DNA of 64,000 nucleotides. Origin: an uncultured Candidatus Saccharibacteria bacterium. Its GTDB lineage: Bacteria; Patescibacteriota; Doudnabacteria; UBA920. Each line of letters starts with the position of its first letter. Position 1 is the first letter of the stretch. A model generated the notes under the pieces. It saw only the letters and a list, made by a program, of their open reading frames with translations. It had not been told where the DNA came from and ran no database searches. Position numbers and translations under genes: made by a program. Shown piece by piece: positions 3,747-47,527 of this stretch. The stretch spans positions 8-64,007 of the forward strand of contig CAZHIA010000007.1 of NCBI GenBank assembly GCA_964532425.1, written 5' to 3'.

Positions 3747-5855
3747 ATGGCTTCCCGAAACCCGTATCCCGATGAGCAGCCCTATGCGCAGGCTCAGGTC
3801 CCGGCCCATCGTCCCCGGAAGAAGTCTTCCGGCGCAGGCCTGGGAGTAATCATGGTCTTGTTTTCGCTGATCTTCATCGTCGGCCCGTTTGCGGCCCCGA
3901 TCAAGATCGACAGCTTAAGCCGGCTCATTCTGCTTGGCTTTGGCGTGCTCACGCTGCTCATTGGCAGCATCATTTTGGTCATCACGCGGCTCTACATGAA
4001 GGCTTCGGCGAACGAAGCGTTCGTCAAGACCGGCATGGGCGGCCGCAAGGCTATCATCGACGGCGGCGCCATTGTGGTGCCGGTCGTGCATGAAGTCATT
4101 TGGGTGAGCCTCGAGACTATGAAACTCGAGATCATTAAGATGGCCAAAGATGCGTTGCTGACCATGGACAAGCTGCGTGCCGACATTCGCGCCGAGTTCT
4201 TCATTCGCGTGGAGAAAACGCAAGAAGGTGTGTTGCAGGCAGCGACCTCCCTTGGCGACCGGTGCAGTGAGCCGGCGGCGGTCAAACAACTGGTGGAAGC
4301 CAAGCTGGTTTCCGCTCTGCGCGTCGTGGCTGCGACGATGAATCTCGAGGACCTCAACAAGAACCGTGATAAGTTCGCGGAAGAGGTACAGAAGATTGTC
4401 CAGAACGACATCAAGCATAACGGCTACATGCTGGAAACCGTGACCATTTCGCACTTGGACCAGGCGCCGAAAGACACGCTCGATCCCGAGAATAACGTGT
4501 TCGACGCTGAAGGCGCGCGCAACATGGCGGCCAAGATCCAGGTTCAACTGACCGAGAAGACCGAGATCGAACAGAAGCAGGCGGTCGCTCGCGTAAAGCT
4601 GAAGGCTGCTGCCGAGCAGGAAACCAAGCAGCGCGAAGTCGAGAAGAACGAGTTCATCTTCCAGCAGGACGTCGCCAACACGAAGGCCCAGCAGGACACC
4701 GAGCTGCAGAAGAAGCAGATTCAAGCCGAAACGGCCCGCAAGACTGCTGAAGTCGAAGCGGAAAATACGGCTGCATCAGAAGCGGTGAGGGCCCAGAAAG
4801 GCCGTGAAGCGCAGGAAGCCAAGATCATCGCGGAACAGGCTGTCCAGCTTCGTAACGTGGCCAAGGAACAGGCCGTGCAAGTAGCGAACACGGTTAAGGA
4901 AAAAGAAGTTCAGGCCGCACAGATCGATCGCGATACGCTGATCAAGACCAAGACCGTCGAACAGCAGAAAGACATCGAGACGGCTACGGTCGAAAAGCAG
5001 AAGGCAGTGGAAGTCGCCAAGCGCAACCAGGAAATCACGATTGCGACCAAGGAGCAGGAACTTGCCGCCGCTGCAGCCGCTAAGCTGACCGCCGAAGCCG
5101 ATCGTGAACGGGCCAACCAGGCCAAGCTTACGGTCGAGAAGGAAGGTGAAGCCCAGCGTGCCAAGACAGTTGTGGTCATCAACAAACAGGCCGAAGCCGA
5201 ATCTCGGCAGATTGAGCAGCAAACGCAGGTAAACGTCGAGGCGTATCGCACGACCAAGCTTGCCGAAGCTGAACAGCTTGCTGCGGAGAAGACGGCGACG
5301 GCTGTCCGTACGAAGGCTGAAGCCGATCGTGACGCCAAGCAGATGGCAGCGGCTGGCGATCAGGCTGTTGCGTTGGTGCCGGTCCAGGTCAAGCAGGCCG
5401 AGGTCGATGTCGAAGCCAAGCGGGTCACGGTCCTCAAGTCCGAACTCGAAGCCAAGACAGCCAACGAGAAGATGGCGTTCGATCTGCAGGTCAAGTTGGC
5501 CGAGATCGCGGCCGACCGCGATGTTCGCATGAAGGCTGCCGAGTCTCTCGGCGCCGCCTTAAGTGGTGCGAATATGACCATTTGGGGCGACCAGCGGACC
5601 CTGGAGCAGATCTCGGGGGCGTTCTACGCCGGCCAGCAAAAGGGCAAGTTCATCGAAGGGGTTGCCAATGCCACGCCGGCTGACGTCAAGGAAGCGGTGT
5701 TCGATTCCGTCGAGCGCATCTCCGGGGCAGTCTCCAATCTGGCCAAAAACATGTTCGGCAAGGATATCTCGCCGGACATGATCGCAACGCTGGTTAACGC
5801 GGAGCTGGAGAAGCAGCGTACCGGTGCGCCGGCCGCGGCATCCGCCAAGGCGTGA
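3747..5855 (+). CDS. Flotillin-like SPFH/Band-7 protein (YqiK/FloT family) with an unusually long E/A/K/Q-rich coiled-coil tail (702 aa).
   Basis: N-terminal TM hairpin, an SPFH-like segment (IIDGGAIVVPVVHEVIWVSLETMKLE...) and a long EA-repeat region. AGGAG RBS. Terminator follows. Confidence 0.8.
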   Translation: MASRNPYPDEQPYAQAQVPAHRPRKKSSGAGLGVIMVLFSLIFIVGPFAAPIKIDSLSRLILLGFGVLTLLIGSIILVITRLYMKASANEAFVKTGMGGRKAIIDGGAIVVPVVHEVIWVSLETMKLEIIKMAKDALLTMDKLRADIRAEFFIRVEKTQEGVLQAATSLGDRCSEPAAVKQLVEAKLVSALRVVAATMNLEDLNKNRDKFAEEVQKIVQNDIKHNGYMLETVTISHLDQAPKDTLDPENNVFDAEGARNMAAKIQVQLTEKTEIEQKQAVARVKLKAAAEQETKQREVEKNEFIFQQDVANTKAQQDTELQKKQIQAETARKTAEVEAENTAASEAVRAQKGREAQEAKIIAEQAVQLRNVAKEQAVQVANTVKEKEVQAAQIDRDTLIKTKTVEQQKDIETATVEKQKAVEVAKRNQEITIATKEQELAAAAAAKLTAEADRERANQAKLTVEKEGEAQRAKTVVVINKQAEAESRQIEQQTQVNVEAYRTTKLAEAEQLAAEKTATAVRTKAEADRDAKQMAAAGDQAVALVPVQVKQAEVDVEAKRVTVLKSELEAKTANEKMAFDLQVKLAEIAADRDVRMKAAESLGAALSGANMTIWGDQRTLEQISGAFYAGQQKGKFIEGVANATPADVKEAVFDSVERISGAVSNLAKNMFGKDISPDMIATLVNAELEKQRTGAPAAASAKA

Positions 5856-7205: not shown

Positions 7206-10055
7206 ATGGACAACAATAAAATTTCTATCCGCGGAGCGCGGCAGCACAATCTGAAGAATGTGGATGTCGATCTGCCCCGCAACAAACTGATCGTCATGAC
7301 CGGGTTGTCCGGCAGCGGCAAGTCGTCTTTGGCGTTCGATACCATTTATGCCGAAGGCCAGCGCCGCTATGTGGAATCCCTGTCCGCGTATGCCCGCCAG
7401 TTCATCGGGCTCATGGATAAGCCGGATGTGGACAAAATAGAGGGCCTTTCCCCGGCCATTTCCATCGACCAGAAATCCGCCAGCCATAACCCGCGCTCGA
7501 CCGTGGGTACGGTGACGGAAATTTACGATTACATGCGCTTGCTCTACGCCCGCATTGGCATCCCGCACTGCCCGGTCTGCGGTAAGAAAATAGCCGGTCA
7601 GACCATTCAGTCTATGGTTGACCAGCTTTTGGCTTTCCCTGAAGCCACGCGCGTCATTCTGCTTGCCCCGTTCATCAAGGACCAGAAAGGCGAGCACAAG
7701 GTTATCTTCGAACAGATCAAGCGCGCCGGGTTCGCCCGCGTGCGCGTAGACGGCGTACTGATGGATTTGGCCGAAGCCCAGCGTTTGAATTTGGACAAGC
7801 AGAAGAAGCACAGTATTGACGTGGTAGTGGATCGTCTTTCCATCTCCAAACAGGACAAGGGCAGAATTGCCGAAAGTTTGGAAAAAGCCGTTGACCTGGG
7901 CGATGGTATTGCCATGGTGCTTGTGATGAAAGGGGATAAAGCGGAAAAGGAACTCACCTTGTCGCAAAAGTTTGCCTGTCCGGACGGACACATTCAGCTT
8001 TCTGAACTTGATCCGCGCGATTTTTCCTTTAACAGCCCGCATGGTGCCTGTCCGGAATGCAAGGGTCTCGGGACCAAGCTGACGGTGGAACCTGACCTGG
8101 TCATCCCGAATCCCAAACTGACCCTGGCCGAAGGAGCCATCCGTCCCTGGAGCAAGACTACCTCGCGCCTGTCCTGGTACAGCCGCATTATGCAGGCTGT
8201 GGCCAAGGAATATGGTTTTTCCGTTAACACCCCGGTCAAGGACCTGCCTAAAAAGTTTGTGGATGTTATTCTGTACGGCACCGGCGACAAGAAGGTTAAG
8301 GTGGCGGGGGAATTTACCACGCGCGAAGGCGAATTTGAAATGATGACTGCGTTTGAAGGTGTTATCGGCAATTTGGAACGCCGCTACAAGGAGACGGATT
8401 CCGACTATATGCGCGGCGAGATCGAGAACTACATGCGCATCCGCACCTGCCAGGTCTGCCATGGCAAGCGCCTCAAGCCCGAAGTGCTCGGTGTGACTGT
8501 AGGGGACTGCAACATCGTGGATGTTTCCAATATGACCATCGAAAAAACGGCGGACTTTTTCAATACGCTCCCGAAGAAAATTTCGGGCAAGGACCAGGAA
8601 ATAGCCAAGCAGGTCTTAAAGGAGATTAACGCGCGCCTGTCGTTCCTTTTAAATGTTGGCTTGTCATACCTGTCGCTTGACCGCACCGCAGACACCTTGT
8701 CCGGCGGGGAAGCGCAGCGCATTCGTTTGGCTACCCAAATAGGCTCCGGCCTGACCGGTGTCCTCTATATATTAGACGAACCATCCATCGGCTTGCACCA
8801 GCGCGACAACGGCCGCTTGCTGCAGACACTCAAGGATTTGCGTGATTTGGGTAATACTGTCATTGTCGTCGAACACGATGAAGAGACCATCCGCGAGGCT
8901 GACTGGGTCGTGGACATTGGGCCGGGTGCCGGCAAGCACGGCGGGGAAATTGTGGCCGAAGGAACACCCAAGCAGATTGAGAAGGACACCAAGAGCGTGA
9001 CCGGGCAGTATTTGTCCGGCAAGGAAATGATCGAGGTGCCCAAACGCCGCCGTCCGGGCAATGGCCGCAAAATTTCCGTAGTCGGAGCCGAAGAGTTTAA
9101 TTTAAAAAATGTCAGCGTAGACATCCCGCTTGGGAAATTCGTCTGCGTGACTGGTGTGTCCGGTAGCGGCAAATCCACCTTGTTCAATGATATTCTGGCC
9201 AAAGCCCTCTATAAATACTTCTGGGGCAGCAAGGACGAGCCGGGCAAGCACAAAAAGATTTTGGGCATGGAGCATATCGACAAGATCATCAACATTGACC
9301 AGAGTCCTATTGGCCGCACGCCGCGGTCGAATCCGGCCACCTATACCGGACTGTTCACGCCCATTCGCGAACTGTTTGCGGATACGCGCGAGGCGCGCAT
9401 GCGCGGCTACAAGGCCGGGCGCTTCTCGTTCAACGTTAAAGGCGGACGCTGCGAACGCTGCGCCGGCGACGGCGTGCTGCGCGTGGAAATGAACTTCTTG
9501 CCTGATGTCTATATTACCTGTGAGGAGTGCCACGGTAAGCGCTATAACCGCGAGGCGCTGGAGATCCACTATAAAGAACGGACCATTTCTGATGTTCTGG
9601 ATATGACCGTAGACGAGGCTAAGACCTTCTTCGCTTCGGTGCCGGCCTTGTTTAAGAAGCTGGAAATTTTGTCGCAGGTCGGTCTGGGTTACATGCGCCT
9701 CGGTCAGAATGCCACGACCCTGTCCGGCGGTGAGGCCCAGCGCATTAAGCTGGCTACGGAACTTTCGCGCGCCAGCACGGGCCGTACCTTGTATCTTCTG
9801 GATGAGCCGACCACCGGGTTGCACTTTGCCGATGTGAAGAGGTTGATCCACGTTTTGAACCGCCTTGTCGACAAAGGCAACACGGTTGTGGTCATCGAGC
9901 ACAATCTGGATATGATCAAGACTGCGGACTGGATTGTTGACCTCGGACCCGAGGGAGGGGACAAGGGCGGGACCATCGTGGCCACCGGCACGCCTGAAGA
10001 CATTGCTAAAGTAAAGGCGAGCTACACGGGGCAGTATCTGAAAAGCATACTATAG
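7206..10055 (+). CDS. uvrA: Excinuclease ABC subunit A (UvrA).
   Basis: 949 aa. Two ABC ATPase modules with Walker A ([24 protein letters not shown]), LSGGE signatures and zinc-finger Cys pairs. N-terminus [24 protein letters not shown] is typical of UvrA. Confidence 0.96.
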
Positions 10056-10386
10056 TGAAATAGAGAATTAGAGAACTAGTGAACTAGAGAAATAGTAAAC
10101 TAGAAAAGCGAAAAGTAGAACACGGATAAACACTGATAAAATACAAACTGATTAACACAGATAAACCGCCTCGACAATCTGATCGGGGTGGTTTTGTAGA
10201 GCAGGCCCATGGCCTGCATGTGTAGGGGCGGGTCGCTACCCGCCCTTTTGCATTGTCATTGCGAGTCGTTTAAGGGCTTTGGCTTAAACGGCGTGGCAAT
10301 CTCTTTCATCTGGTGTAGATTGCTTTGTCAACAAGTCAAAACCCTTGCTTCTTCACAATGACAAGCAAATTATCTCATATATGCTA

Positions 10387-10422
10387 TTCATCACAATTCA
10401 ACGATCGTTGAATTGTGATGAA
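10387..10422. repeat. 36-bp perfect palindrome TTCATCACAATTCAACGA|TCGTTGAATTGTGATGAA.
   Basis: Exact 18+18 inverted repeat read directly from the sequence. It sits just upstream of the terminator for the minus-strand gene ending at 10509. Confidence 0.8.
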
Positions 10423-10423
10423 T

Positions 10424-10475
10424 AAAAAACACCCCGCTCTTTGATTCGCCAATTGGCGAAAAAGGGCGGGGTGTT
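10424..10475 (-). terminator. Terminator for the minus-strand gene ending at 10509: ACACCCCGC...GCGGGGTGT stem, a nested TTCGCCAATTGGCGAA palindrome, and a T-tract on the minus strand.
   Basis: GC-rich stem. The A-run on the plus strand equals a T-run on the minus strand. Confidence 0.65.
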
Positions 10476-10508: not shown

Positions 10509-10940
10509 TTACTCGTGGACCACGTGCTCCTCATAGAGCGGGAACACGTAGACATCGTACTCCCTGTTGAGTAACCAGCATTTGCGGCTGGAGATCTCCG
10601 AGCGGACCACTATAGCGACCAGGTTTATGCCGGGGCGCAGATGGTCGGAAATAATTCTTCCGATTGTCTCAGACGCAGGAATGGCGCTGACATGAAACGA
10701 GCCATCTGTCTCGACAATCAGGTAGGGTTGCTGGAGGTAAACCAGCTTGTCGTTGTGGTTGCGATTTCCTACCAAGTGTTCGCTGGTCATGCTCCCCAGG
10801 TCCTGGTCCAGTTTGGAAAACTGGCAGAACGCGATGTGGTGGACCTTGTCCTTGACCAGCTCGTCTGTCGCCTTCGGATCGACAACCAGCTTTAGCCACG
10901 GGTTGTCTTCCAGAATCTTTCTGTACTTTTCGACTTTCAT
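10509..10940 (-). CDS. Hypothetical protein (143 aa).
   Basis: GAGGAGGA RBS 4 nt upstream of the ATG on the minus strand. No family recognised. Confidence 0.6.
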   Translation of the reverse strand: MKVEKYRKILEDNPWLKLVVDPKATDELVKDKVHHIAFCQFSKLDQDLGSMTSEHLVGNRNHNDKLVYLQQPYLIVETDGSFHVSAIPASETIGRIISDHLRPGINLVAIVVRSEISSRKCWLLNREYDVYVFPLYEEHVVHE

Positions 10941-19829: not shown

Positions 19830-22800
19830 ATGAACAAACTTATTAATCTCAAAGCTGCTGCCGCTGCGGCCATCATGGCCCTGGCCAGTGCCCTGACCCT
19901 CCTGGTCCCACAGCCGGCGTTGGCAGCACAAACCATCACTTCCGCCACACTTAATGGGGGAAGCTCAGTAGTGGTCAAGCCAGGTACAACCATAACGGCA
20001 AATGTTGTTGGCAGTTTAACTGGAGGGGATCATTGGCACGGCACTCAGTGGCGCATCAGTACCACACCACCTTCAGGGTCTGGTACATCTACTTGTTCAG
20101 ATACAACAGATCATAATAGTGGCACTGGTGTATCATCGGGAAATTTCAACATTACAGCCCCAGGAACAGCAGGTACCTATAATGTCTATTTTATAATGGA
20201 CTCGTCAAGTATTTGTAATGGTAGCGAAGGGGCATACTTTACATTAAGTAATGCAGTGGTTGTCGATGCTACAGCTCCTACAATTACCATCACACCTGGT
20301 GATTCAACCTCGCCAGTAAAGACCGTAACCTGGAACTGGTCGGCTAATGAGGCCTCTACTTATCGGTATATTATAAGCACCAATCCGGCCACAATGCCTT
20401 CCGGAAGTTTTTCTTCCGTGACATCTGCTACTCAGAGTACAGGGAATGGCACATACTATTTGAAAGTTGAGGCACAAGATGCAGCAGGGAATACAACTGT
20501 AAAAGGCGTGTACGCTATTTTGGATAACACAGCGCCAGTAATCGCTCCGGCTTCCGATGTTATCGCTACAGCTAATGCATTGGGTGGTGCAACAGTAAGT
20601 TATGCTCTTCCCACAGCTACAGACAATCATGATTCTACGGTAACTGTAACGTGCAGTCCGGTTTCCGGGAGTTTCTTCTCTCTTGGCCAAACAACTGTTA
20701 CCTGCAATGCCAGCGATGCTGCAGGAAACGCGGCCACTCCTGTTACCTTTAAAGTTACCGTAAATCCAGGTCCGGTCAGTGCGAGTCAGTCAACTGTTGA
20801 AGTGAGTGTCAGCTCCGCTACTACGAACGGCGGCAATGTCATTATTACCATTACTGCCAAGGACCAGTTTGGGAATGTCATACCGAATATTCTGCCTGCA
20901 AATGTAGTCATCTCAGCAAGCGGCAGCGGTAATACTGTTCACCAGCCTTCAGCTCCGACAGATTCCAATGGGAAGACGCAAGGCCAATTGGGATCAAGTG
21001 TTTCAGGGACTAAAACAATTACGGTAACGATAAACGGAACCCCGTTAACACAACAGCCGCAAGTTACATTTACAGTCGGCGATCCGGTCAATGCCACCGT
21101 TACGGCAACACCTAAGCCCCGGGAAGCGAGCCTTTCTGGAGCTTCGGTGGCTTTAGATATTTTTGTCGACGATGGCAATGGCAATGCGGTCAATGATGGT
21201 GTTATTTTAACGGTTACACCGTCTACCTCAGCTCCCCATGGTACACCTACGGTCACCGGTTGTACTCCCACCTCTGCCGGCCATGTCAGCTGCACGTTAA
21301 GCTTCAACTACAAGGGTACGGTCTCTTTAGCCATTTCTTCCTATAAGGGAAGCTTGAATGTACTCGGAGATAATCCGGTAAGCTTTGTTGATACCACCAA
21401 GCCGATTATAGCCGTTATACCGCCGAATCCGGACAGTGTGGAATATAAGGGGACATATACCGATCCTGGCGCAACGGCAACTGACAATATTGATGGTGAT
21501 TTGACTTCGCAGATTGTAAAAACCGGTACCGTCGATCCCAATACGCTCAACGGCGTACCGAATACGACCACGAAGGTGGTAGGCGTGTACACGCTCTATT
21601 ACAATGTGTCCGATTCCAGCACAAACGCCGCTGTACAGCAGACTCGTACGGTCAATGTGGTGGATACCACACCGCCGGTTATTGAGTCAATTACTTCTGA
21701 TGCAACAGCAAGCGGATGGTTAAAGGTCACAGATTCTATTACGTTTACGTTAACGACATCTGTAGTTGAACCCGCTGGTACAATAGTCTCAGGTTCCTAC
21801 AACGGTCGTTCTTTGACCTGGACCACAACGGATAATCGGCACTGGACTGCGGTCTATACGGTAACGGAAGGGGACTCCGATCAGCTTACGCCTTTGCAAA
21901 TTTCCGGTGTAAAGGTTACTGATGAAGCCGGAAACGATAGCACCTTAGCTTCGGGTATTGATGTTCAGAAGACTATTGATGCAAATACGCCAACGACGCC
22001 TACCGTCAACCTTCCTACGTATATCAACAATGCAGGAAAGAGCAATGTAGAATTAACAATTAGTGGCGAGTCGGGAACGACAGCTGATTACGCGCTCACT
22101 GATAGCGGTACTGGTTCAGTTACGGGCTCGGTGGTAATTCCGGGAACCGGTACTGCCGTTGTAAATCTCGATTTGTCTGGTTTGGCTGATGGCACAGTTA
22201 CCGCTTCTGTTACATTGACTGATGTTGCCGGAAATAAAAGCCCGGCAGGTACGGATACTGCCACGAAAGATACCGTTGCTCCCGCCGCCGGAACTCTGAC
22301 CATCGATCCGTACATAAACGTTACGAACCAGTCGCCGTTTGCCGTGAACGGGACGGGTGAGCCAAATGCCAAGCTTCATATTACCATCACTGATTTTGAT
22401 GGTCACACTGAAATTATCGATTACGGAGCAGTGACCGTAGGCGGCAATATTTACGCCATAAAAAATCTCTCGAGCTTACACGACGGAACAGTGACGTTTG
22501 CCCTCGCTTTGGAGGACGCTGCTGGTAATGTTGGCCCGGAATCTACAACTACTGCCGTAAAAGAGACTATCAGGCCTACATTGGTATCACTCGATAACGG
22601 CTCTTTGTACAAAGCCGGTACTTATACCTTGTCGGCGGAGTTTAGCGAAGACGTAACTGCGCCGAAAATTTCCATTGCATATACTTCGGTGAACGGCACT
22701 TGTTCTGATGTGACTAATGCAGCCATGACGCCGGGTAGTGATGCTCTTCATTACACGTACGATCTCGTGATCGATGATGCTTGTGATGGAGCAAATGCCA

Positions 22801-25800
22801 CCATCACCGTCAGTAATGCTACTGACACGGCTGGTAACCCCATGTTAGACGACGCTACTCACACCTTCAAAGTTGATACTTTAGCACCTGCTTTGGCTAT
22901 TACGAGCCCGGCGACTGATGCATATATCAACGCAAACTATTCGGTCAGTTATACTATGAGTGAAGATCTGCAGAGCGGCTCGCTAGTCTTCCACAGCATG
23001 ACTCCTGGCATGACCTGCCCGCTCACAGGCAGCGACTTGTTGTCCGGTACACATACCATAGCTGCTGTCGCGTTGACGACCTGTGGTATTACTTTGACCG
23101 AAGGGACTCATACTATAACGCTCAACGGCACTGATCTGGCTGGTAACAGCAACACGACTACTAACACTAATATCACCTACGATGTGACCGCGCCGACGGT
23201 CGTGAATGTGACTTCTCCTAAAGCAGATGGTATCTACAAGGCCGGTGAGGTGATAGATGTCACTGTACAGTTCAGCGAGCCGGTTAATGTGACTTATGAC
23301 TACACGTCCGGCGGTTGTGGTTATTGGCCGTGGTCACCGTGCTGGGACGGCCACTATTATGCGCCCCAGGTTGCCTTAGAAACAGGCTCGACTGATAGAA
23401 ATGCTGTGTACGACCGGGATGCGGGCGGCAGCGGTACCAACACAATTTCTTTCCGGTACGTAGTAGAAGCTGGTGACATGACATCTGACCTGGATTATAT
23501 ATCCGCCAGTGCGCTCAGTATGAACGGTCAGAGTATTCGCGATTTGGCTGGCAACGATGTTGTTGCAACCCTTGCCGTTCCTGGTGCAGAACATTCATTA
23601 GGCTTTAACAAAGCAATTGTCATTGATACCCAGGCTCCGACAGTTGCTTTGACGACTCCGGTGGCTGATCCGACAAATGTCACGCCGTTTACGGTAACGG
23701 CGACGTTCTCGGAAGATGTAACCGGGTTTGAGTCCTCCGATATAGTAGTGGGAAATGGTTCTGTCAGTAACTTTGCCGGCAGCGGTTCTGTGTATACCTT
23801 TGATGTAACGCCAACCGGCGACGGTTCGGTTACGATCGATGTCCCGGCTGCGGCAGCTGTTGATGCGGCTGGTAACGGTAATACGGTAGCGACCCAACTG
23901 ACTCGTGTCTTTGATGCAACCAAACCAACCGTAACTGCAGTAGCTTTGATGGAAGGAACAGTTGCTTCTGATGGTTTGGTTAAGGCTGGAGATGTGCTCA
24001 CGGTGAATGTGACCTTCAGTGAAGATATGGCGAGCACACCAGTTCCTCAAATCTCTATTGCCGGCGCAAATACGTTGACAGGGGCCGACATGACCAAGGT
24101 TGATGCCAAACATTATACCTACAACTTCACAGTCGGTTCCGGAGACGGTACTGCTACTATTACGATCGATAACGGAAAGGATTTGGCTGGCAATGCCCAG
24201 GTGGCCAATTCCAGTGCAACCTTTAAAGTCGATAACACCGCCCCAGTCATTTCCGGCACTCCTTCCAGCTTTGCCACAACGGCCAATACTACTGGCTATG
24301 CGAACGGCGTAACCTATACCATGCCGACTGCCGCCGATGACGTCGACGGTTCGGTGGCGGTTACCTGTACTCCGGCTTCCGGATCGAATTTCCCGCTCGG
24401 CGGAACAACGGTAACCTGCACAGCCAAGGACGCGGCCGGCAACAATGCCACACCAACAACCTTCACGGTTACCGTTAATCCTGCCGTCATTGCCAAAGTT
24501 ACGGTTTCTGCCTCTCCTTCTACCTTGACCACGGCAGATACTTCCACCCTGACCATCAATGGCCGCGACCAGTATGACAATGTGACGACCAATCAGAGCG
24601 GTACGGTTGTGGCGATCAGCGCGGACAATGGTGGCGCTTTGGGCGCAACCATTGTGACGCTTGCAAGCGGTGCGGCTACGACGAGTCTCAATAAGACTTC
24701 TGCTGGCGATGTGCATGTCACGGTGACCAGCGGTATCCTCACTCCGGGCAACACCACGGTGACGTTTACGAAGGCTGATGTAACTCCTCCGACTGTAGTC
24801 AATTCAAATCCAGCTCCGGGAGCCACAGGGGTTTCGGTGAATGCCTCCCTGTTCGTAACCTTCAGTGAACCCCTTAAGTCCACAAGCATCAATTCCACCA
24901 ACGTCCAGCTGTGGCGCGTAGCTACGGGAACCGAGGTTTCCGATGTGCAAATTCCGGTTACGGTCTCCCTGGTGTCCGGCGATATGCAAGTGAACCTTAC
25001 GCCTGCCGGACCGCTTGAATACACGAATTCTTACTACTTTGTAGTCAGTGGCGTGCAGGATGCCGCGGGTAATGCCATGGCCGACCCGTACACCACCGCG
25101 GGTAATCCGTTCAAGACCGAAGACAGCACGGCGGATGTAACAAACCCGACAGTAAAGAGTCAGTATCCCGCAGCCGCTGCAACGAATGTTGCTATAACAG
25201 TCAAGCCGTCCGTGACCTTCTCGGAAACGATGGACACTACCACGCTGACTGACAGCAACGTCCAACTCATCAAAGATTCAGACAGCTCTGTTATCCCTGC
25301 AACGGTAGTAGTGGGCAATGGAGGCACCCAGGCTATTCTGGAACCGGCTACCGCCCTCTTAAACAGCACGAGCTACCATGTAACCGTTAGTACTGCCGTT
25401 AAGGATCTTGCAGGCAATCCGTTGGCCAGCAGCTATGTTGGAGACAGCTTCACCACGGAAGCCGAGCAGGTGGTAGACTTGGCCGTGACCCAGACCGAAC
25501 TGCTGCAGAGCTATGCCACTCCGAACAATACCTATGCCAGTGGCTGGAAGTGGAAGCTCAAGGTCACGACCCCGAAAGATGAGACTAAATTGCGCATGAA
25601 GTTTACTGACTTCACCAGCGGCGCCAATACCGTGCCCGCTGCAGGCAATATCCATTTCTACTCTGCTCAGTCCTCGGATGCCGCTACGTCTGACACGGCC
25701 CGTGAGATCACGGCAGCCGGCACGTTCAGCTCGGACATTACCCTAAACGGCGATACCGATACCTCCGCTCCTGGACGGCAGATTGAAATTATCGTTGAGG

Positions 25801-25880
25801 TTAAAGTTCCGGCCGGTACCCCGGGCGGTTCGTACTCCAATAGCTACGATATCCAGACCAGTACTCCTTCTGAGACGTAA
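19830..25880 (+). CDS. Giant secreted cell-surface protein (2016 aa) with repeated Ig-like/HYR-like modules; putative adhesin.
   Basis: Signal peptide MNKLINLKAAAAAAIMALASALTLLVPQPALAA. Two near-duplicate HYR-like modules (ATDNHDSTVTVTCSPVSGSFFSLGQTTVTCNASDAAGNAATPVTFKVTVNP and AADDVDGSVAVTCTPASGSNFPLGGTTVTCTAKDAAGNNATPTTFTVTVNP). T/S/V/N-rich beta-type repeats throughout. Confidence 0.8.
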   Translation: MNKLINLKAAAAAAIMALASALTLLVPQPALAAQTITSATLNGGSSVVVKPGTTITANVVGSLTGGDHWHGTQWRISTTPPSGSGTSTCSDTTDHNSGTGVSSGNFNITAPGTAGTYNVYFIMDSSSICNGSEGAYFTLSNAVVVDATAPTITITPGDSTSPVKTVTWNWSANEASTYRYIISTNPATMPSGSFSSVTSATQSTGNGTYYLKVEAQDAAGNTTVKGVYAILDNTAPVIAPASDVIATANALGGATVSYALPTATDNHDSTVTVTCSPVSGSFFSLGQTTVTCNASDAAGNAATPVTFKVTVNPGPVSASQSTVEVSVSSATTNGGNVIITITAKDQFGNVIPNILPANVVISASGSGNTVHQPSAPTDSNGKTQGQLGSSVSGTKTITVTINGTPLTQQPQVTFTVGDPVNATVTATPKPREASLSGASVALDIFVDDGNGNAVNDGVILTVTPSTSAPHGTPTVTGCTPTSAGHVSCTLSFNYKGTVSLAISSYKGSLNVLGDNPVSFVDTTKPIIAVIPPNPDSVEYKGTYTDPGATATDNIDGDLTSQIVKTGTVDPNTLNGVPNTTTKVVGVYTLYYNVSDSSTNAAVQQTRTVNVVDTTPPVIESITSDATASGWLKVTDSITFTLTTSVVEPAGTIVSGSYNGRSLTWTTTDNRHWTAVYTVTEGDSDQLTPLQISGVKVTDEAGNDSTLASGIDVQKTIDANTPTTPTVNLPTYINNAGKSNVELTISGESGTTADYALTDSGTGSVTGSVVIPGTGTAVVNLDLSGLADGTVTASVTLTDVAGNKSPAGTDTATKDTVAPAAGTLTIDPYINVTNQSPFAVNGTGEPNAKLHITITDFDGHTEIIDYGAVTVGGNIYAIKNLSSLHDGTVTFALALEDAAGNVGPESTTTAVKETIRPTLVSLDNGSLYKAGTYTLSAEFSEDVTAPKISIAYTSVNGTCSDVTNAAMTPGSDALHYTYDLVIDDACDGANATITVSNATDTAGNPMLDDATHTFKVDTLAPALAITSPATDAYINANYSVSYTMSEDLQSGSLVFHSMTPGMTCPLTGSDLLSGTHTIAAVALTTCGITLTEGTHTITLNGTDLAGNSNTTTNTNITYDVTAPTVVNVTSPKADGIYKAGEVIDVTVQFSEPVNVTYDYTSGGCGYWPWSPCWDGHYYAPQVALETGSTDRNAVYDRDAGGSGTNTISFRYVVEAGDMTSDLDYISASALSMNGQSIRDLAGNDVVATLAVPGAEHSLGFNKAIVIDTQAPTVALTTPVADPTNVTPFTVTATFSEDVTGFESSDIVVGNGSVSNFAGSGSVYTFDVTPTGDGSVTIDVPAAAAVDAAGNGNTVATQLTRVFDATKPTVTAVALMEGTVASDGLVKAGDVLTVNVTFSEDMASTPVPQISIAGANTLTGADMTKVDAKHYTYNFTVGSGDGTATITIDNGKDLAGNAQVANSSATFKVDNTAPVISGTPSSFATTANTTGYANGVTYTMPTAADDVDGSVAVTCTPASGSNFPLGGTTVTCTAKDAAGNNATPTTFTVTVNPAVIAKVTVSASPSTLTTADTSTLTINGRDQYDNVTTNQSGTVVAISADNGGALGATIVTLASGAATTSLNKTSAGDVHVTVTSGILTPGNTTVTFTKADVTPPTVVNSNPAPGATGVSVNASLFVTFSEPLKSTSINSTNVQLWRVATGTEVSDVQIPVTVSLVSGDMQVNLTPAGPLEYTNSYYFVVSGVQDAAGNAMADPYTTAGNPFKTEDSTADVTNPTVKSQYPAAAATNVAITVKPSVTFSETMDTTTLTDSNVQLIKDSDSSVIPATVVVGNGGTQAILEPATALLNSTSYHVTVSTAVKDLAGNPLASSYVGDSFTTEAEQVVDLAVTQTELLQSYATPNNTYASGWKWKLKVTTPKDETKLRMKFTDFTSGANTVPAAGNIHFYSAQSSDAATSDTAREITAAGTFSSDITLNGDTDTSAPGRQIEIIVEVKVPAGTPGGSYSNSYDIQTSTPSET

Positions 25881-25909
25881 TTACCATCTAACCGCTAACA
25901 TTCAAGACC

Positions 25910-27409
25910 ATGAAGAAATATTTGTTCCTGACATTGCTGCTGGCGGGGATGGCGGCGGCGCCGAAAGTGTTGGCCGTAGCCACACCGCCGGTAACCGGAC
26001 ACACCTCTACCATTTCCGGCACCCTCACGACCGGATTGTCGAGCGGGCCGCAGGTAGTCGTGGTTGTGCCGCCGAGCGCGAGCCCTGATGCCGGCACATA
26101 TACCTCGACCCAGAATGTCGTTTTGACTGCCACGGGCAGCCAGAGCATCCACTACACCACGGACGGCACTGAGCCGACGTGCACTACCGCCTCAACGTAC
26201 AGCGCCGCTATTCCCGTATCCGCCACGCTGACCGTTAAAGCCATCTCCTGCTATCCTGACAGCCATGCCTCAACCGTTGCCAGCTTTACCTACACGATCA
26301 ATACCCCTGCCGCTCCTTCCAGCCCCTCCGGCGGGGGAGGGGGCGGGGGAGGCGGATCGTTCGCACCCTCTTCTCCCTTTGGCACAATTTCAGTCGCCAT
26401 CAATGGCACTGCCACGACAACTTCGAGCCGTACGGTAACGCTGACGCTGACCGCGACCGGCGCGACGCAGATGATCATTTCCAATGCAGCCGATTTATCC
26501 GGATCTTCCTGGCAAACATTCGCTACGACCACAACCTGGACCTTGCCGGCTGGCGATGGCATAAAGGCGGTGTATGCCAAGTTCAAGAACGCTTCGAATG
26601 AATCTTCCGTCGTCAGCGATACCATAACGCTGTACGAAGGCAAGGTCTTGGGAGAAAGCACAGCACTGAATGCTCATCCGAATGGTACTTTGATTCTTGA
26701 CGGCAAAACTATCTATCTCATTGAGAACCGCGAGCGTCATGGTTTCCGCGACCCGCAGGAGTACGCCTCCTACGGTTATCGGTTCGACCAGGCAGTGCCG
26801 GTCATTGAAGCGGACAGCCTATTGCCAGTGGGTGACATCATGAAAGCTATGACAGGAACCCTGGCCCTCGACACTTCCGATAACCGTACGGTCTACATGG
26901 TAGGCAAGAACGCCACCAAGCGCGGTTTCGCCTCGTACAGCGTCTTTACCGGCCTTGGCTATGCTAAAGGTTCGGGTATGTCCGGCCAAGCGGTTAATGG
27001 CATGTTCAAGATTAACATGACCGATTACCCCGCAGGCCTGCCCATTACCTCGGCCACGGAACCGCATCCTGAAGGTGCACTGGTCCGCCAGAGTAACGGT
27101 ACTATTTGGTGGATATTGGACGGCAAGCGCAGTGGCTTTGAATCCGAAGCGGTGTATAACACCTATGGCTTCACCTTTGACCGGGCTGTTCCAGCCAATG
27201 CGGCTGATCTGGCTCTCTCTGAAGGACCGCTGGTCAAGTTCCGCGACGGGACGCTGGTTCGGGACGGTACGGTTTACTATATTATTACCGACGGGCAAAA
27301 AATGCCCTTTGCCTCGGTCCAGTCACTGGCGAGCTGGGGCTACAAGACCTCCAACGTCATAACCGCAAACCTCAGTACTTACACGCAAGCGCCAACTACG
27401 CTACCCTAA
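25910..27409 (+). CDS. Secreted protein with a poly-Gly linker and four C-terminal approximately 45-aa repeats (G-x-KR-x-GF...GY motif); possible cell-wall-binding repeats.
   Basis: Signal peptide. GGGGGGGGG run. Repeats of the form IYLIENRERHGFRDPQEYASYGY, VYMVGKNATKRGFASYSVFTGLGY, IWWILDGKRSGFESEAVYNTYGF and VYYIITDGQKMPFASVQSLASWGY. Confidence 0.65.
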   Translation: MKKYLFLTLLLAGMAAAPKVLAVATPPVTGHTSTISGTLTTGLSSGPQVVVVVPPSASPDAGTYTSTQNVVLTATGSQSIHYTTDGTEPTCTTASTYSAAIPVSATLTVKAISCYPDSHASTVASFTYTINTPAAPSSPSGGGGGGGGGSFAPSSPFGTISVAINGTATTTSSRTVTLTLTATGATQMIISNAADLSGSSWQTFATTTTWTLPAGDGIKAVYAKFKNASNESSVVSDTITLYEGKVLGESTALNAHPNGTLILDGKTIYLIENRERHGFRDPQEYASYGYRFDQAVPVIEADSLLPVGDIMKAMTGTLALDTSDNRTVYMVGKNATKRGFASYSVFTGLGYAKGSGMSGQAVNGMFKINMTDYPAGLPITSATEPHPEGALVRQSNGTIWWILDGKRSGFESEAVYNTYGFTFDRAVPANAADLALSEGPLVKFRDGTLVRDGTVYYIITDGQKMPFASVQSLASWGYKTSNVITANLSTYTQAPTTLP

Positions 27410-27417
27410 GCAATAAA

Positions 27418-27450
27418 ATCCTCCGCCCATATTTGGGCGGAGGATTTTAT
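27418..27450 (+). terminator. Rho-independent terminator AATCCTCCGCCC-ATATTT-GGGCGGAGGATT + TTT.
   Basis: 12-bp stem with a trailing T-run directly after the stop at 27409. Confidence 0.7.
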
Positions 27451-27516: not shown

Positions 27517-27558
27517 TTCAGTGGGGAAGTTGTACAAATGTACAACTTCCCCACTGAA
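27517..27558. repeat. Perfect 20-bp-arm hairpin TTCAGTGGGGAAGTTGTACA-AA-TGTACAACTTCCCCACTGAA (copy 1).
   Basis: Exact inverted repeat. A second copy with loop TT (the exact reverse complement) lies at 28298..28339. Confidence 0.85.
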
Positions 27559-27573
27559 ATCGAAACAAAAATA

Positions 27574-28248
27574 ATGACACGATATTATCGTCAAAGATCG
27601 GGATTGGTTGCGGAATTAATGCAACAGATTCCGAAAGCACCGCGTAAGAGGAAAGAGGAGGCGAATTATGATAATCTCAAGCGCGCCAGCGAGATTGTCC
27701 TTGCGGTGGTGGCGGTGGCGGGGTTGGCATCGGTTGCGGTAGTGGCGCCCAATGCGCTGCTTGCCCTGAATAAGTTCTTTTTGAAAAAACACAAGCATCT
27801 CAGTCCCGCAGAGCAGCAACGGAAGATGGTGGACACTTTCTACTATCTGAAACGGAGCGGTAAAATTGACTTACGTCCTGATGGCGGATCATGGAAAGTG
27901 TGGTTGACCGCCAAAGGGAAGCGGCAAGTTTTAGAAATGGACATTGCGACGGTCTATATACCCAAAGCGTCAAAATGGGGAGGCACCTGGTGGCTCATTG
28001 CAGCAGACGTTCCCACGAAGGATCACCGGCAGGGTGCAGACCGGTTGCGTCGCAAATTGAAACAGCTTAATTTATTTCCGCTCCAAAGGACCTTGTGGCT
28101 TTACCCATATGATCCCTGTGAGGCTTTGGAAGTCATACTTCATGCCTATCATATAGAAAATTTTGTAACAGTCATGGAAGTCCGTAAGCTGGACCGGGAG
28201 GATGAAAGGAAAGCCAAGGCACATTTTCGTAACACGGGTGTGCTATAG
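27574..28248 (+). CDS. Hypothetical protein with an N-terminal TM helix, a winged-helix-like segment and a C-terminal Cas2-like/PaaX-like segment. Start uncertain; the ORF could begin at 27538 inside the hairpin.
   Basis: Clean ORF bracketed by the two hairpins. The C-terminal motif GGTWWLIAADVP...DRLRRKLKQLNLFPLQRTLWLYPYD resembles the beta-alpha-beta core of Cas2/VapD-type proteins. This is a pattern-level resemblance only. Confidence 0.45.
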   Translation: MTRYYRQRSGLVAELMQQIPKAPRKRKEEANYDNLKRASEIVLAVVAVAGLASVAVVAPNALLALNKFFLKKHKHLSPAEQQRKMVDTFYYLKRSGKIDLRPDGGSWKVWLTAKGKRQVLEMDIATVYIPKASKWGGTWWLIAADVPTKDHRQGADRLRRKLKQLNLFPLQRTLWLYPYDPCEALEVILHAYHIENFVTVMEVRKLDREDERKAKAHFRNTGVL

Positions 28249-28297
28249 CCGTAGTAGTTTTAATCATGTTTCTATAATAGAAAATTAGTGTAATTAA

Positions 28298-28339
28298 TTC
28301 AGTGGGGAAGTTGTACATTTGTACAACTTCCCCACTGAA
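28298..28339. repeat. Perfect 20-bp-arm hairpin (copy 2, inverted orientation, loop TT). It also serves as a likely bidirectional terminator between the 27574..28248 gene and msrB.
   Basis: Sequence TTCAGTGGGGAAGTTGTACA-TT-TGTACAACTTCCCCACTGAA. Confidence 0.85.
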
Positions 28340-28385
28340 TTTGAGTGTCAGGGCATATATCAAGGGTGTATGTTTTGGATGCTTA

Positions 28386-28847
28386 TTATTGGGAATCGGC
28401 TGGTTTGTGTACCAGGCACGCGCCGTTGATGCAGTACCTTTTTCCTGTCGCAGGCCGCGAGCTGGGCGTGGCGGCCGGAGACCCTGAGCCTGTCGAAGGG
28501 TCGACGAACGCGGGCCCATCGTCAAAAATATGGCCTAAGTGGCTACCGCACGTAGCGCAGACCACCTCGGTGCGGTGCATGCCGTGGCTGTCGTCATCCT
28601 GGAGAATGACCGCGCCGGGCAGGGCTTGGTCAAAACTCGGCCAGCCAGTGCCGGAGTTGAATTTAGCATCCGAGGCAAACAATTGGCTACCGCAGACCGC
28701 GCAGGCGAACATTCCGGGTTCGTGCACATTCAGCAGGGCAGAGGTGTAAGGCGCTTCGGTCCCGTTCTCACGTAGAATGTGGTACTGCTCGGGGGTCAAT
28801 TTTTTCTTGAGTTTTTCTTCGCTAATCTGTTTTGATTGGTTTAACAT
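28386..28847 (-). CDS. msrB: Peptide methionine (R)-S-oxide reductase MsrB.
   Basis: Two CxxC zinc motifs (CAVCGSQLF, CATCGSHLGHIFDDGP) and the catalytic RYCINGA motif near the C-terminus. Confidence 0.85.
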   Translation of the reverse strand: MLNQSKQISEEKLKKKLTPEQYHILRENGTEAPYTSALLNVHEPGMFACAVCGSQLFASDAKFNSGTGWPSFDQALPGAVILQDDDSHGMHRTEVVCATCGSHLGHIFDDGPAFVDPSTGSGSPAATPSSRPATGKRYCINGACLVHKPADSQ

Positions 28848-30777: not shown

Positions 30778-31149
30778 ATGCAGGATTCAAACAAGCAGTT
30801 CAAGGTAGAACTGAAAAAGAGGGTCTATGTTTGGGTTTTGCGCTTAATAAGGTTCTTGAAATCCTTACCGAAAAATTATGTATTTGAGGTATTAGGGAAG
30901 CAGCTATTGAGAAGTGGTACAAGTATCCTGGCTAATTTTATAGAAGCTCAAGCTGCTTCTTCAAGAAAGGATTTTACAAATTTTATTAATCATAGTTTGA
31001 AATCAGCAAATGAAACGAAGGTTTGGTTAAGTCTGTTAAAAGATTCTTTATCTAAAGACTATGAACGTGAAGCAGGTGGGTTGTTAAAAGAAGCAATTGA
31101 ACTATCAAATATTTTTGGAAGTATTGTAACTACGTTGCGGATGAAGTAA
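30778..31149 (+). CDS. Four-helix-bundle protein (the family often found in 23S rRNA intervening sequences), AT-rich, apparently inserted between grpE and dnaK.
   Basis: About 120 aa helical protein matching the four-helix-bundle family (VLRLIRFLKSLPKNYVFEVLGKQLLRSGTSILANFIEAQAASSRKDF...). Flanked by imperfect inverted repeats (AAAATGAAAAATTCAAAGTT / ACTTTGAATTTTT). Confidence 0.7.
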   Translation: MQDSNKQFKVELKKRVYVWVLRLIRFLKSLPKNYVFEVLGKQLLRSGTSILANFIEAQAASSRKDFTNFINHSLKSANETKVWLSLLKDSLSKDYEREAGGLLKEAIELSNIFGSIVTTLRMK

Positions 31150-33132: not shown

Positions 33133-33220
33133 TTTATAATGAAGGTAATTCGCCGCACGGCGAATTACCTTCAAAAGATTTAAAGCGGTGCCGGAATATC
33201 CGGCATTTGCAAACACAAAA

Positions 33221-47334: not shown

Positions 47335-47527
47335 TTTCTACTAAATACGAACACTGCGTACGAAACTACTAAATCTTTCATGTACGGTTTAGTAGTTTAG
47401 TACAATTTAGTATTTAGTAGAGAAATGGAGATTGTTAAAACGCACGGTCTGTACAAGACCGTGCGTTGTGCGTATGTATGGCAGGGGCAGTGTTGGTGCC
47501 GTCCCAAGCCGTGGGCCTGAAGATATA

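Follow-up and report, generated by a model that had tools for sequence, protein, structure and literature searches.

Why is a single bacterial gene bracketed by two copies of one perfect palindrome, and what is the function of the protein encoded between them? The question is raised by a 64,000-nucleotide (64-kb) stretch of DNA from an uncultured Candidatus Saccharibacteria bacterium (GTDB lineage Patescibacteriota, Doudnabacteria, UBA920; assembly GCA_964532425.1, contig CAZHIA010000007.1), which is called the window below and to whose first letter all positions refer unless a locus is named. A first-pass annotation, made from the letters alone, had noticed the palindromes and proposed that they enclose an invertible or mobile cassette, encoding a membrane-tethered toxin or nuclease, a PaaX-like regulator or the cargo of a tiny insertion. 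Our follow-up analysis demonstrates that the protein is a shortened PaaX-type protein lacking the PaaX_C domain, and that the two-sided layout recurs throughout its family. A PaaX-like regulator is the best fit among the three proposed functions, and we lean towards reading the palindromes as its own operators.

The two palindromes and the gene between them

A search of the window for the 20-mer TTCAGTGGGGAAGTTGTACA gives exactly four copies, and still four when three mismatches are allowed, whereas four matches were reached in none of 100 dinucleotide shuffles. The four copies compose the arms of two perfect 42-nt palindromes, at 27517-27558 and 28298-28339. Since the loop of the former is AA and that of the latter TT, the two 42-nt cores are exact reverse complements, and the inverted orientation, the coordinates and the loops given by the first-pass annotation are all confirmed. 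The arms of the downstream palindrome extend somewhat further, reaching 22 nt (28296-28341). Folded as single strands, the upstream copy yields -34.2 kcal/mol (z = -9.6 relative to shuffles) and the downstream copy -37.0 kcal/mol (z = -7.9).

A single open reading frame (ORF) lies between the palindromes at 27574-28248, as had been claimed, and comprises 224 codons plus the stop codon. Public annotation starts the gene at the ATG at 27538, in the loop of the first palindrome (236 amino acids (aa), P0001), but an alignment of 35 homologues favors the start at the ATG at 27574 (224 aa). Many dyad centers of the family contain an ATG (CAWATG), and gene callers may be misled by it, as possibly in the window between 27538 and 27573.

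The encoded protein

PaaX_M ('PaaX protein central Cas2-like domain', PF20803) is the sole significant Pfam domain of the protein, matching residues 133-212 with an E-value of 8.9e-12 (45.4 bits versus a cut-off of 24), and is matched by all 35 aligned homologues. The NCBIfam model for PaaX itself, TIGR02277, is matched below threshold (20.5 bits versus a cut-off of 264.55). No match was obtained to the ligand-binding domain PaaX_C, and the protein stops 12 residues past the PaaX_M match.

An AlphaFold2 model was built from the family alignment, with a mean predicted local distance difference test (pLDDT) score of 84. It shows an ill-defined basic N-terminal tail and a helix-break-helix segment (residues 38-49 and 54-70), followed by a long helix (78-94) and a beta-hairpin (98-111) that correspond to the recognition helix and the wing of a winged helix. 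A linker helix then leads to a beta-alpha-beta-beta-alpha-beta domain at residues 139-221. The best solved structure found with Foldseek is E. coli PaaX (8a39, E 7e-6), and the next are the PaaX-like structures 3l09 and 3kfw. Matches to the separate domains comprise the winged-helix repressors MecI (E about 0.02), AspA and F-93 on the one hand, and Cas2 chains (5zyf and 3exc; probability 0.99, target TM-score about 0.59) on the other. Profile alignment with hhalign placed family columns 97-215 on residues 57-171 of the 316 residues of PaaX at 81% probability, with the recognition helix and wing aligned to PaaX residues 57-100. The C-terminal end of the window protein coincides with the point where the ligand-binding C-domain of PaaX would start. 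Of the two blocks that had been suggested from the letters, the Cas2-like C-terminal fold is thus borne out by the PaaX_M match and the structural matches, and the winged-helix block by the modelled recognition helix and wing.

The relation to Cas2 is also visible in the sequence. The family motif WWLVAADIPTK..R.GAD.LR.KLK..GFYPLQRTLWLYPYDP parallels the beta1-Asp and Q.SVF motifs of Cas2, and D145, located at the Cas2 catalytic position, is invariant in 35 sequences. However, because E. coli PaaX likewise has an acidic residue at the equivalent position, the conservation of this Asp is no proof of catalysis. Distant family members reach the thresholds of Cas2 models (in Pfam, P0039 with 26 bits versus a cut-off of 23.8; in PADLOC, E 9e-8), whereas the window protein itself has no Cas2 match in Pfam or PADLOC. 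A search of PHROGs gave no match for it, and a PDB-sequence profile search no significant one.

The N-terminal part is of a different character. Residues 41-65 display a hydropathy typical of transmembrane segments, with a Kyte-Doolittle 19-mer mean of 2.61; the family median is 2.37 and the maximum in E. coli PaaX is 1.09. The hydrophobic stretch, AG....AVVAPN, is kept even in relatives of 30% identity. It occupies the place expected for helices 1 and 2 of the winged helix and is modelled as two helices, and the Pfam models of winged helix-turn-helix (wHTH) domains match family members by their C-terminal halves only. Judging from the sequence, the stretch may be either a membrane anchor, which is plausible for residues 41-65, or an unusually hydrophobic version of winged-helix helices 1 and 2.

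Flanking palindromes throughout the family

To place the locus in its family, we collected 47 word-indexed homologues, all of them from Patescibacteria assemblies and mostly from Doudnabacteria. A profile search of 1.84 billion representatives additionally retrieved 1,872 cluster representatives at E <= 1e-10, mostly of 180-230 aa. From species-representative genomes 44 loci (designated by L and a number) were taken, and in 43 of them the 260 bp to either side of the gene were scanned for 20+20 dyads. Upstream of the gene, 30 of the 43 loci have a best dyad of 16/20 or better, and 31 have one downstream; 33 loci score 14/20 or better on both flanks. Of 285-bp windows drawn at random from these loci, only 1.4% attain 16/20. 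In all, about 40 homologous Patescibacteria loci have a dyad of 34-48 bp on either side of the gene. Since each has its own palindromes in this family-wide layout, the window is one instance of a conserved architecture.

The two dyads of one locus are nearly identical, but they are unlike between loci and between the paralogues of one genome. For instance, L007 and L025, which belong to the same assembly, have the palindromes GTGGGGAAATTGCGCAA and ATTTGAAACTTTCTACA, respectively. Several genomes contain 2-5 paralogues, which are 40-50% identical and located in unrelated gene neighborhoods; near-identical paralogue copies were found in none of the surveyed genomes. A 190-aa subfamily of 30% identity shows the same two-sided layout with different centers, clearly in L109 (19/20 and 20/20) and more weakly in L111 and L114.

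Measured from the predicted start, the upstream dyad has its edge between -31 and +90 nt, usually 1-60 nt ahead of the start; counted from the stop codon, the downstream dyad starts between -6 and about +60 nt. The orientation of the two copies to each other varies: about 16 loci have them direct and 13 inverted, with 7 ties. A half-center TTGCGA/TTGTAC with a -10-like hexamer 16-17 bp further on occurs in 7 of 38 upstream sites, versus 2-4 in each of three control directions; as a promoter test this is only weakly informative.

Seven loci have extra cognate copies, 1-3 each, at further boundaries between genes within a distance of 3.5 kb. The orthologous loci L019 and L033 have a third cognate palindrome (646-686 and 638-678, respectively) 3.3 kb upstream of the regulator gene, where it precedes a two-gene operon; this operon encodes a secreted lipase-like protein of 928 aa along with a small membrane protein, and is thus bracketed by the palindromes too. 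Two further copies in L038 bracket a gene for a protein resembling phosphoenolpyruvate-utilising enzymes. In L032 (4184-4400) the gene is immediately followed, near the contig end, by three palindromes related to one another (ATGCA.A...ATACAT|ATGTA...TGCAT) at intervals of about 88 bp, which make a small array and not a single downstream site. These extra copies fit a small local regulon, and fit a limited spread in the manner of repetitive extragenic palindromic (REP) sequences less well.

Anatomy of the sites and covariation with the recognition helix

When 77 sites are folded about their centers, three zones can be told apart. Positions 1-5 compose the family core YRCAW|WTGYR, with A at position 2 in 99% of the sites, C at position 3 in 92%, and A (66%) or G (34%) at position 4. 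Positions 13-17 form a symmetric outer box that varies between loci; in the window it is AGTGGGG, in common with the orthologue L005 and with L007. The two arms are symmetric to 90-99% at positions 2-5 and to 94-97% at positions 13-17, and to 73-87% at the A/T-rich positions 6-12. The copies of one locus agree with each other at positions 2-6 and 13-18 in 29-36 of 36 loci, and differ mainly at positions 7-12 and beyond 18. Because the two better-preserved zones are about 11 bp apart, they lie on one face of the duplex. The outer boxes have the geometry of the E. coli PaaX operator, TGATTC-N27-GAATCA (PMC9493321), whose boxes lie 14-19 bp from the dyad center; according to the same paper, PaaX is a repressor of its own promoter. 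The family center motif occurs three times in the window, two of them at the gene, and neither another dyad with a family-type center nor, by a sensitive search, a second family member was found in the 64 kb.

The variable box covaries with the protein. In a partial Mantel test controlled for identity in the rest of the protein, likeness in the N-terminal half of the recognition helix (window residues 79-87) is predictive of likeness in the outer box (r = 0.21, p = 0.0002), whereas r = 0.06 (p = 0.17) was obtained with the control reversed. The helix sequence RK(M/I)(A/V)(D/E)TFYY and the box GTGGGGA are common to the window, L005 and L007; similarly, L006 and L025 share KITQTFYY and ATTTGAAA. 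A residue of the Cas2-like domain appears to follow the center instead, as residue 152 is Arg in all 26 loci with A at center position 4 and Lys in 10 of the 14 with G. L007 (sites at 3896-3933 and 4663-4698) combines the box and helix of the window type with a center GCGCAA|TTGCGC and Lys152, and such a natural module swap could be used to assign the recognized parts of the site to parts of the protein. The covariation, as seen in the sequences, fits a modular reading, in which the helices would read the outer boxes and the dimer core would lie over the center.

Proposed function and competing explanations

With moderate confidence, we propose that the gene encodes a dimeric, possibly membrane-associated PaaX-type repressor, that the palindromes are its private PaaX-style operators, and that the whole is an autoregulated and insulated unit. 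The Cas2-like domain would be the dimerisation module, as in PaaX, and each subunit would contribute one winged-helix recognition helix. Both 42-bp palindromes would then be cognate long dyad operators of the PaaX style. The two recognition helices would read the outer boxes AGTGGGG and CCCCACT, 12-18 bp from the center and about 24-26 bp apart, and the conserved center TACAWWTGTA would come to lie under the dimer core. Binding at the upstream site, which would abut or overlap the promoter and the 5' end, would repress the gene. Binding at the downstream site, past the stop codon, might cooperate with the upstream site by looping, or might act as a roadblock to transcription entering or leaving the unit. 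The outcome would be a self-limited, insulated expression unit, and in some relatives the same protein would presumably control neighboring transcription units provided with extra copies of the site as well.

Several observations weigh against this proposal. The N-terminal domain of PaaX in Pfam has no match in the window protein, and helices 1 and 2 of the winged helix are replaced by, or hidden in, the very hydrophobic stretch. No convincing promoter for the window gene was found. In the window, as in about 15 other loci, the gene beyond the downstream site runs convergently; there the downstream site is therefore no promoter operator, the candidate that it simply serves as the operator of that next gene was rejected for the same reason, and the role we give it is conjecture. 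With only two sites in 64 kb, a regulator acting solely on itself needs explaining. The correlations of the helix with the box and of residue 152 with the center are confounded by shared ancestry. Lastly, the arms have evolved in a compensatory manner: between the copies of a locus, both arms have changed with pairing kept at 39 positions, where roughly 5 would be expected, and within the spacer (positions 7-12) compensation is seen for 24 of the 28 double changes. A dimer that reads the duplex needs no compensation at positions it does not read, whereas a hairpin does, and the compensation consequently speaks for an alternative in which the palindromes act as hairpins, i.e. as mRNA stem-loops in the two untranslated regions (5' and 3'), as extruded cruciforms or as single-stranded DNA hairpins. 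The protein would recognize the apical loop CAWWUG together with the box one helical turn down the stem, and its Cas2-like domain would stabilize, occlude or cleave the structure, resulting in post-transcriptional autoregulation. The predicted hairpins are indeed very stable (-34 to -37 kcal/mol, z below -7.8). A separate, canonical intrinsic terminator follows the downstream palindrome in 6 loci, so that the palindrome is transcribed there, and the start codon lies 1-25 nt beyond the end of many upstream copies, at least part of which is therefore probably in the mRNA. RNases occur among Cas2 and VapD relatives, and, as described above, D145 is invariant and distant members match Cas2 models at about E 1e-7. 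Sense-strand G·T mismatches are more frequent than A·C mismatches (46 versus 26), although this asymmetry is too weak to separate RNA from DNA. On the other hand, the symmetry of the arms is lowest, at 73-78%, halfway along the stem and has its two maxima (positions 2-5 and 13-17) about 11 bp from each other, a periodicity of one-face duplex recognition whose spacing equals that of the PaaX duplex operator. The perfect symmetry through the 'loop' is unneeded for a hairpin, the orientation of the copies is mixed with the sites being strand-symmetric, and Rfam gave no family match, only sub-threshold matches to generic hairpins (miRNA). Template switching from arm to arm during replication could yield compensated changes without selection. 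Taken together, we regard a hairpin function as unlikely. It is improbable, too, that in this Patescibacteria-wide wHTH-Cas2 family the Cas2-like domain, with its invariant Asp at the catalytic position, is an active nuclease acting on the extruded hairpin or cruciform of the private palindrome, or alternatively that the hydrophobic anchor makes the protein a membrane tether of specific chromosomal loci. If the former were true, palindrome-gene-palindrome would be a vertically inherited, self-recognising element, similar to REP-associated tyrosine transposases (RAYTs) and their REPINs but based on the Cas2 fold, and it might be a present-day relative of the stand-alone ancestor from which Cas2 arose.

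The repressor proposal has also to be weighed against two further explanations. The first-pass annotation considered the unit a cassette or the cargo of a small insertion, and it might accordingly be, or descend from, a mobile or selfish element of the RAYT/REP or IS200-like kind, or be invertible or excisable; the wHTH-Cas2-like protein would nick or move its palindromes, or recombination would take place between the two copies. RAYT genes are likewise flanked by their own REP palindromes, with an own class for each paralogue (PMC2817692, PMC3116915). The extra copies at nearby intergenic boundaries in 7 loci, including the three-copy array of L032, the mutually inverted centers in the window (AA versus TT), the invariant Asp at the Cas2 position and the unrelated neighborhoods of the paralogues also agree with mobility. 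Nevertheless, we judge it very improbable. No HUH/Y1, DDE, serine or tyrosine recombinase domain was detected with Pfam, NCBIfam, PHROGs or PADLOC, and no target-site duplication or direct repeat is present in the immediate flanks in the window. The window contains one copy of the gene and two palindromes, whereas a REP-like density (more than 100 copies in an assumed genome of ~1 Mb) would give about 6 dispersed copies, and the refuting alternative of a ubiquitous terminator-like REP proved negative, with no similar dyads at other gene ends in the window. REPs bear a GTAG or CGTC tag at one end (PMC3733652), which is absent from the window palindromes. The paralogues are only 40-50% identical, with none near-identical, and the orientation of the copies is mixed across loci. 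Moreover, orthologues keep their position while their palindromes diverge, as in the window and L005, in L019 and L033, and in L011, L018, L026, L034 and L047. L005, the orthologue of the window locus with 48% protein identity, retains the outer box CAGTGGGGAA and has msrB-hrcA-grpE downstream, although the gene and msrB are separated there by about 1.6 kb of additional sequence; because the window gene thus has an orthologue in conserved synteny, the mobile or invertible cassette is unsupported. A metagenome scan with HrcA provided 60 further loci (L049-L108; 54-78% HrcA identity and one outlier of 41%), in which hrcA-grpE is conserved. Both the gene and msrB are absent from all of these loci with enough upstream sequence, including relatives at 68-78% HrcA identity, and no clean empty site was found among them. 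Only the window and L005 have msrB and the regulator gene upstream of hrcA, implying a fast turnover of synteny upstream of hrcA in this lineage. From the window and the related loci, the palindrome appears to be a cognate site tied to the gene, and neither a REP nor the end of a cassette. Passive punctuation, in which the palindromes would be bidirectional terminators, insulators or RNase III-type stems kept alike through gene conversion, appears to us the least probable of all. The palindromes do stand at gene boundaries, their stems measure about 20 bp, and in a consensus scan the upstream copy scores like a terminator on the minus strand. However, about 40 loci show them tied to this one family of genes, and the other gene ends in the window have nothing like them. 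Intrinsic terminators were rejected as a candidate because separate canonical terminators follow the palindromes in several loci and most palindromes have no T-run. Covariation of the outer box with the recognition helix argues against punctuation as well, and a center conserved throughout the family is unexpected for plain terminators. Within the window, the upstream 499-aa gene stops at 27409 and is directly followed by a terminator-like hairpin of its own (27413-27450), which, despite its appearance, has no entry in the consensus terminator scan; the first palindrome is therefore unneeded as the terminator of that gene, in agreement with the earlier view that it is surplus in this respect.

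Layout of the locus and other features of the window

The features of the locus are collected in Table 1. The downstream palindrome sits between the convergent 3' ends of the gene and msrB (28386-28847, minus strand), which is followed by hrcA and grpE. No repeat array of the CRISPR type was found in the window.

Table 1. Coordinates of the palindrome-bracketed gene, its parts and the adjoining hairpin in the window (the bar marks the dyad center)
Feature	Position	Strand	Remarks
Upstream palindrome	27517..27558	.	20-nt arms, center AA; end 15 nt before start codon
Upstream dyad-center core TACAA|ATGTA	27533..27542	.	fits family center YRCAW|WTGYR
Left outer box AGTGGGG of upstream site	27520..27526	.	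mirror CCCCACT at 27549-27555; locus-specific
Gene for shortened PaaX-type protein	27574..28248	+	224 aa
Hydrophobic stretch, codons 41-65, IVLAVVAVAGLASVAVVAPNALLAL	27694..27768	+	family motif AG....AVVAPN
Recognition helix (..RKMVDTFYYLKRSG) and beta-hairpin wing, codons 78-111	27805..27906	+	
Cas2-like (PaaX_M) domain, codons 133-212	27970..28209	+	invariant Asp145 codon 28006-28008
Downstream palindrome	28296..28341	.	center TT; 42-nt core 28298-28339; 47 nt past stop codon
Terminator-like hairpin of upstream 499-aa gene	27413..27450	+	GC-rich 17-nt arms, ending TTTTAT

The unit is preceded by the genes for a 2016-aa repetitive surface protein and for the 499-aa protein, which has CHB_HEX_C and Fn3-associated domains (19830-27409), and a gene for a 23S rRNA intervening-sequence protein comes after grpE (30778-31149). 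Other inverted repeats were encountered elsewhere in the window. An unrelated 40-bp perfect palindrome with the halves TATTCATCACAATTCAACGA and TCGTTGAATTGTGATGAATA is located at 10385-10424, between a uvrA-like ORF (7206-10055, plus strand) and a 143-aa ORF (10509-10940, minus strand) for which Pfam gave no match, and it is followed by a GC-rich hairpin at about 10430-10475. At 47360-47400, a dyad AAACTACTAAA...TTTAGTAGTTT (16/20) with an asymmetric center consists of two boxes and a spacer, and could be the operator of another regulator. Finally, a perfect inverted repeat at 33140-33173 has 16-nt arms, TGAAGGTAATTCGCCG and CGGCGAATTACCTTCA, with 2 nt between them.

Significance

No description of the family or of its site architecture was found in the searchable literature. 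Recognisable regulators are few in Patescibacteria, and operators defined by experiment are almost lacking; here, a large uncharacterised family appears with a putative binding site of each member on both sides of its gene. Dozens of natural protein-site pairs are thereby available from sequence alone, from which a recognition code for the PaaX/Cas2-like scaffold may be derived, and the family offers a direct handle on gene regulation in uncultivated bacteria. It also ties the PaaX regulators to Cas2 more closely than canonical PaaX does. The two-sided layout, together with the compensatory evolution of the arms, poses the question of whether the functional form is a duplex operator or a hairpin.

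Comparison with known systems

Like Cas2 and VapD, the window protein has a ferredoxin-like beta-alpha-beta-beta-alpha-beta fold with a conserved Asp at the end of beta1, and the motif pair WWLVAADIPT...LQRTLW is the counterpart of the beta1-Asp and Q.SVF motifs of Cas2. In contrast to Cas2, the domain is fused to a DNA-binding module, the window has neither cas1 nor a CRISPR array, and no cas genes are among the neighbors in the window or in the related loci. The resemblance to RAYT/REP systems lies in a single-copy, vertically inherited gene flanked by a palindrome class of its own, which differs for each paralogue. However, the protein is unrelated to the HUH/Y1 transposases, and unlike REPs the palindromes are limited to two in 64 kb, both at the gene, are perfect through the center and have no GTAG/CGTC tag.

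A further likeness concerns the repressors of the BlaI/MecI/CopY family. The dyad center of the window, TACAAATGTA or TACATTTGTA, fits TACANNTGTA, the operator core of the TACAnnTGTA type of CopR-CopY and BlaI/MecI (PMC7253601, PMC1935004). On the other hand, Pfam gave no match to that family for the protein, GCAATTGC centers stand in place of this core in a third of the relatives, and the sites of the window family are 40 bp long with added outer boxes. The resemblance may be coincidental.

The closest parallel is PaaX, the phenylacetyl-CoA-responsive repressor of the paa genes in E. coli and Pseudomonas (PDB 8a39 and 3l09). As modelled, the window protein has, like PaaX, a recognition helix and wing of the winged-helix type ahead of a Cas2-like middle domain, and the outer boxes of its putative operators have the spacing of the PaaX operator, a long dyad of two short inverted boxes about 27 bp apart. 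The differences are that the window protein has 224 aa instead of 316 and is devoid of PaaX_C, that its N-terminal stretch is very hydrophobic (2.61 versus 1.09), that no paa genes are nearby, the neighbors encoding a surface protein, MsrB, HrcA and GrpE, and that its sites are perfect palindromes with a conserved center, one on each side of the gene. By analogy, the window protein may work in the manner of PaaX, while its missing C-domain, its equivalog score and its gene context place it outside PaaX proper.

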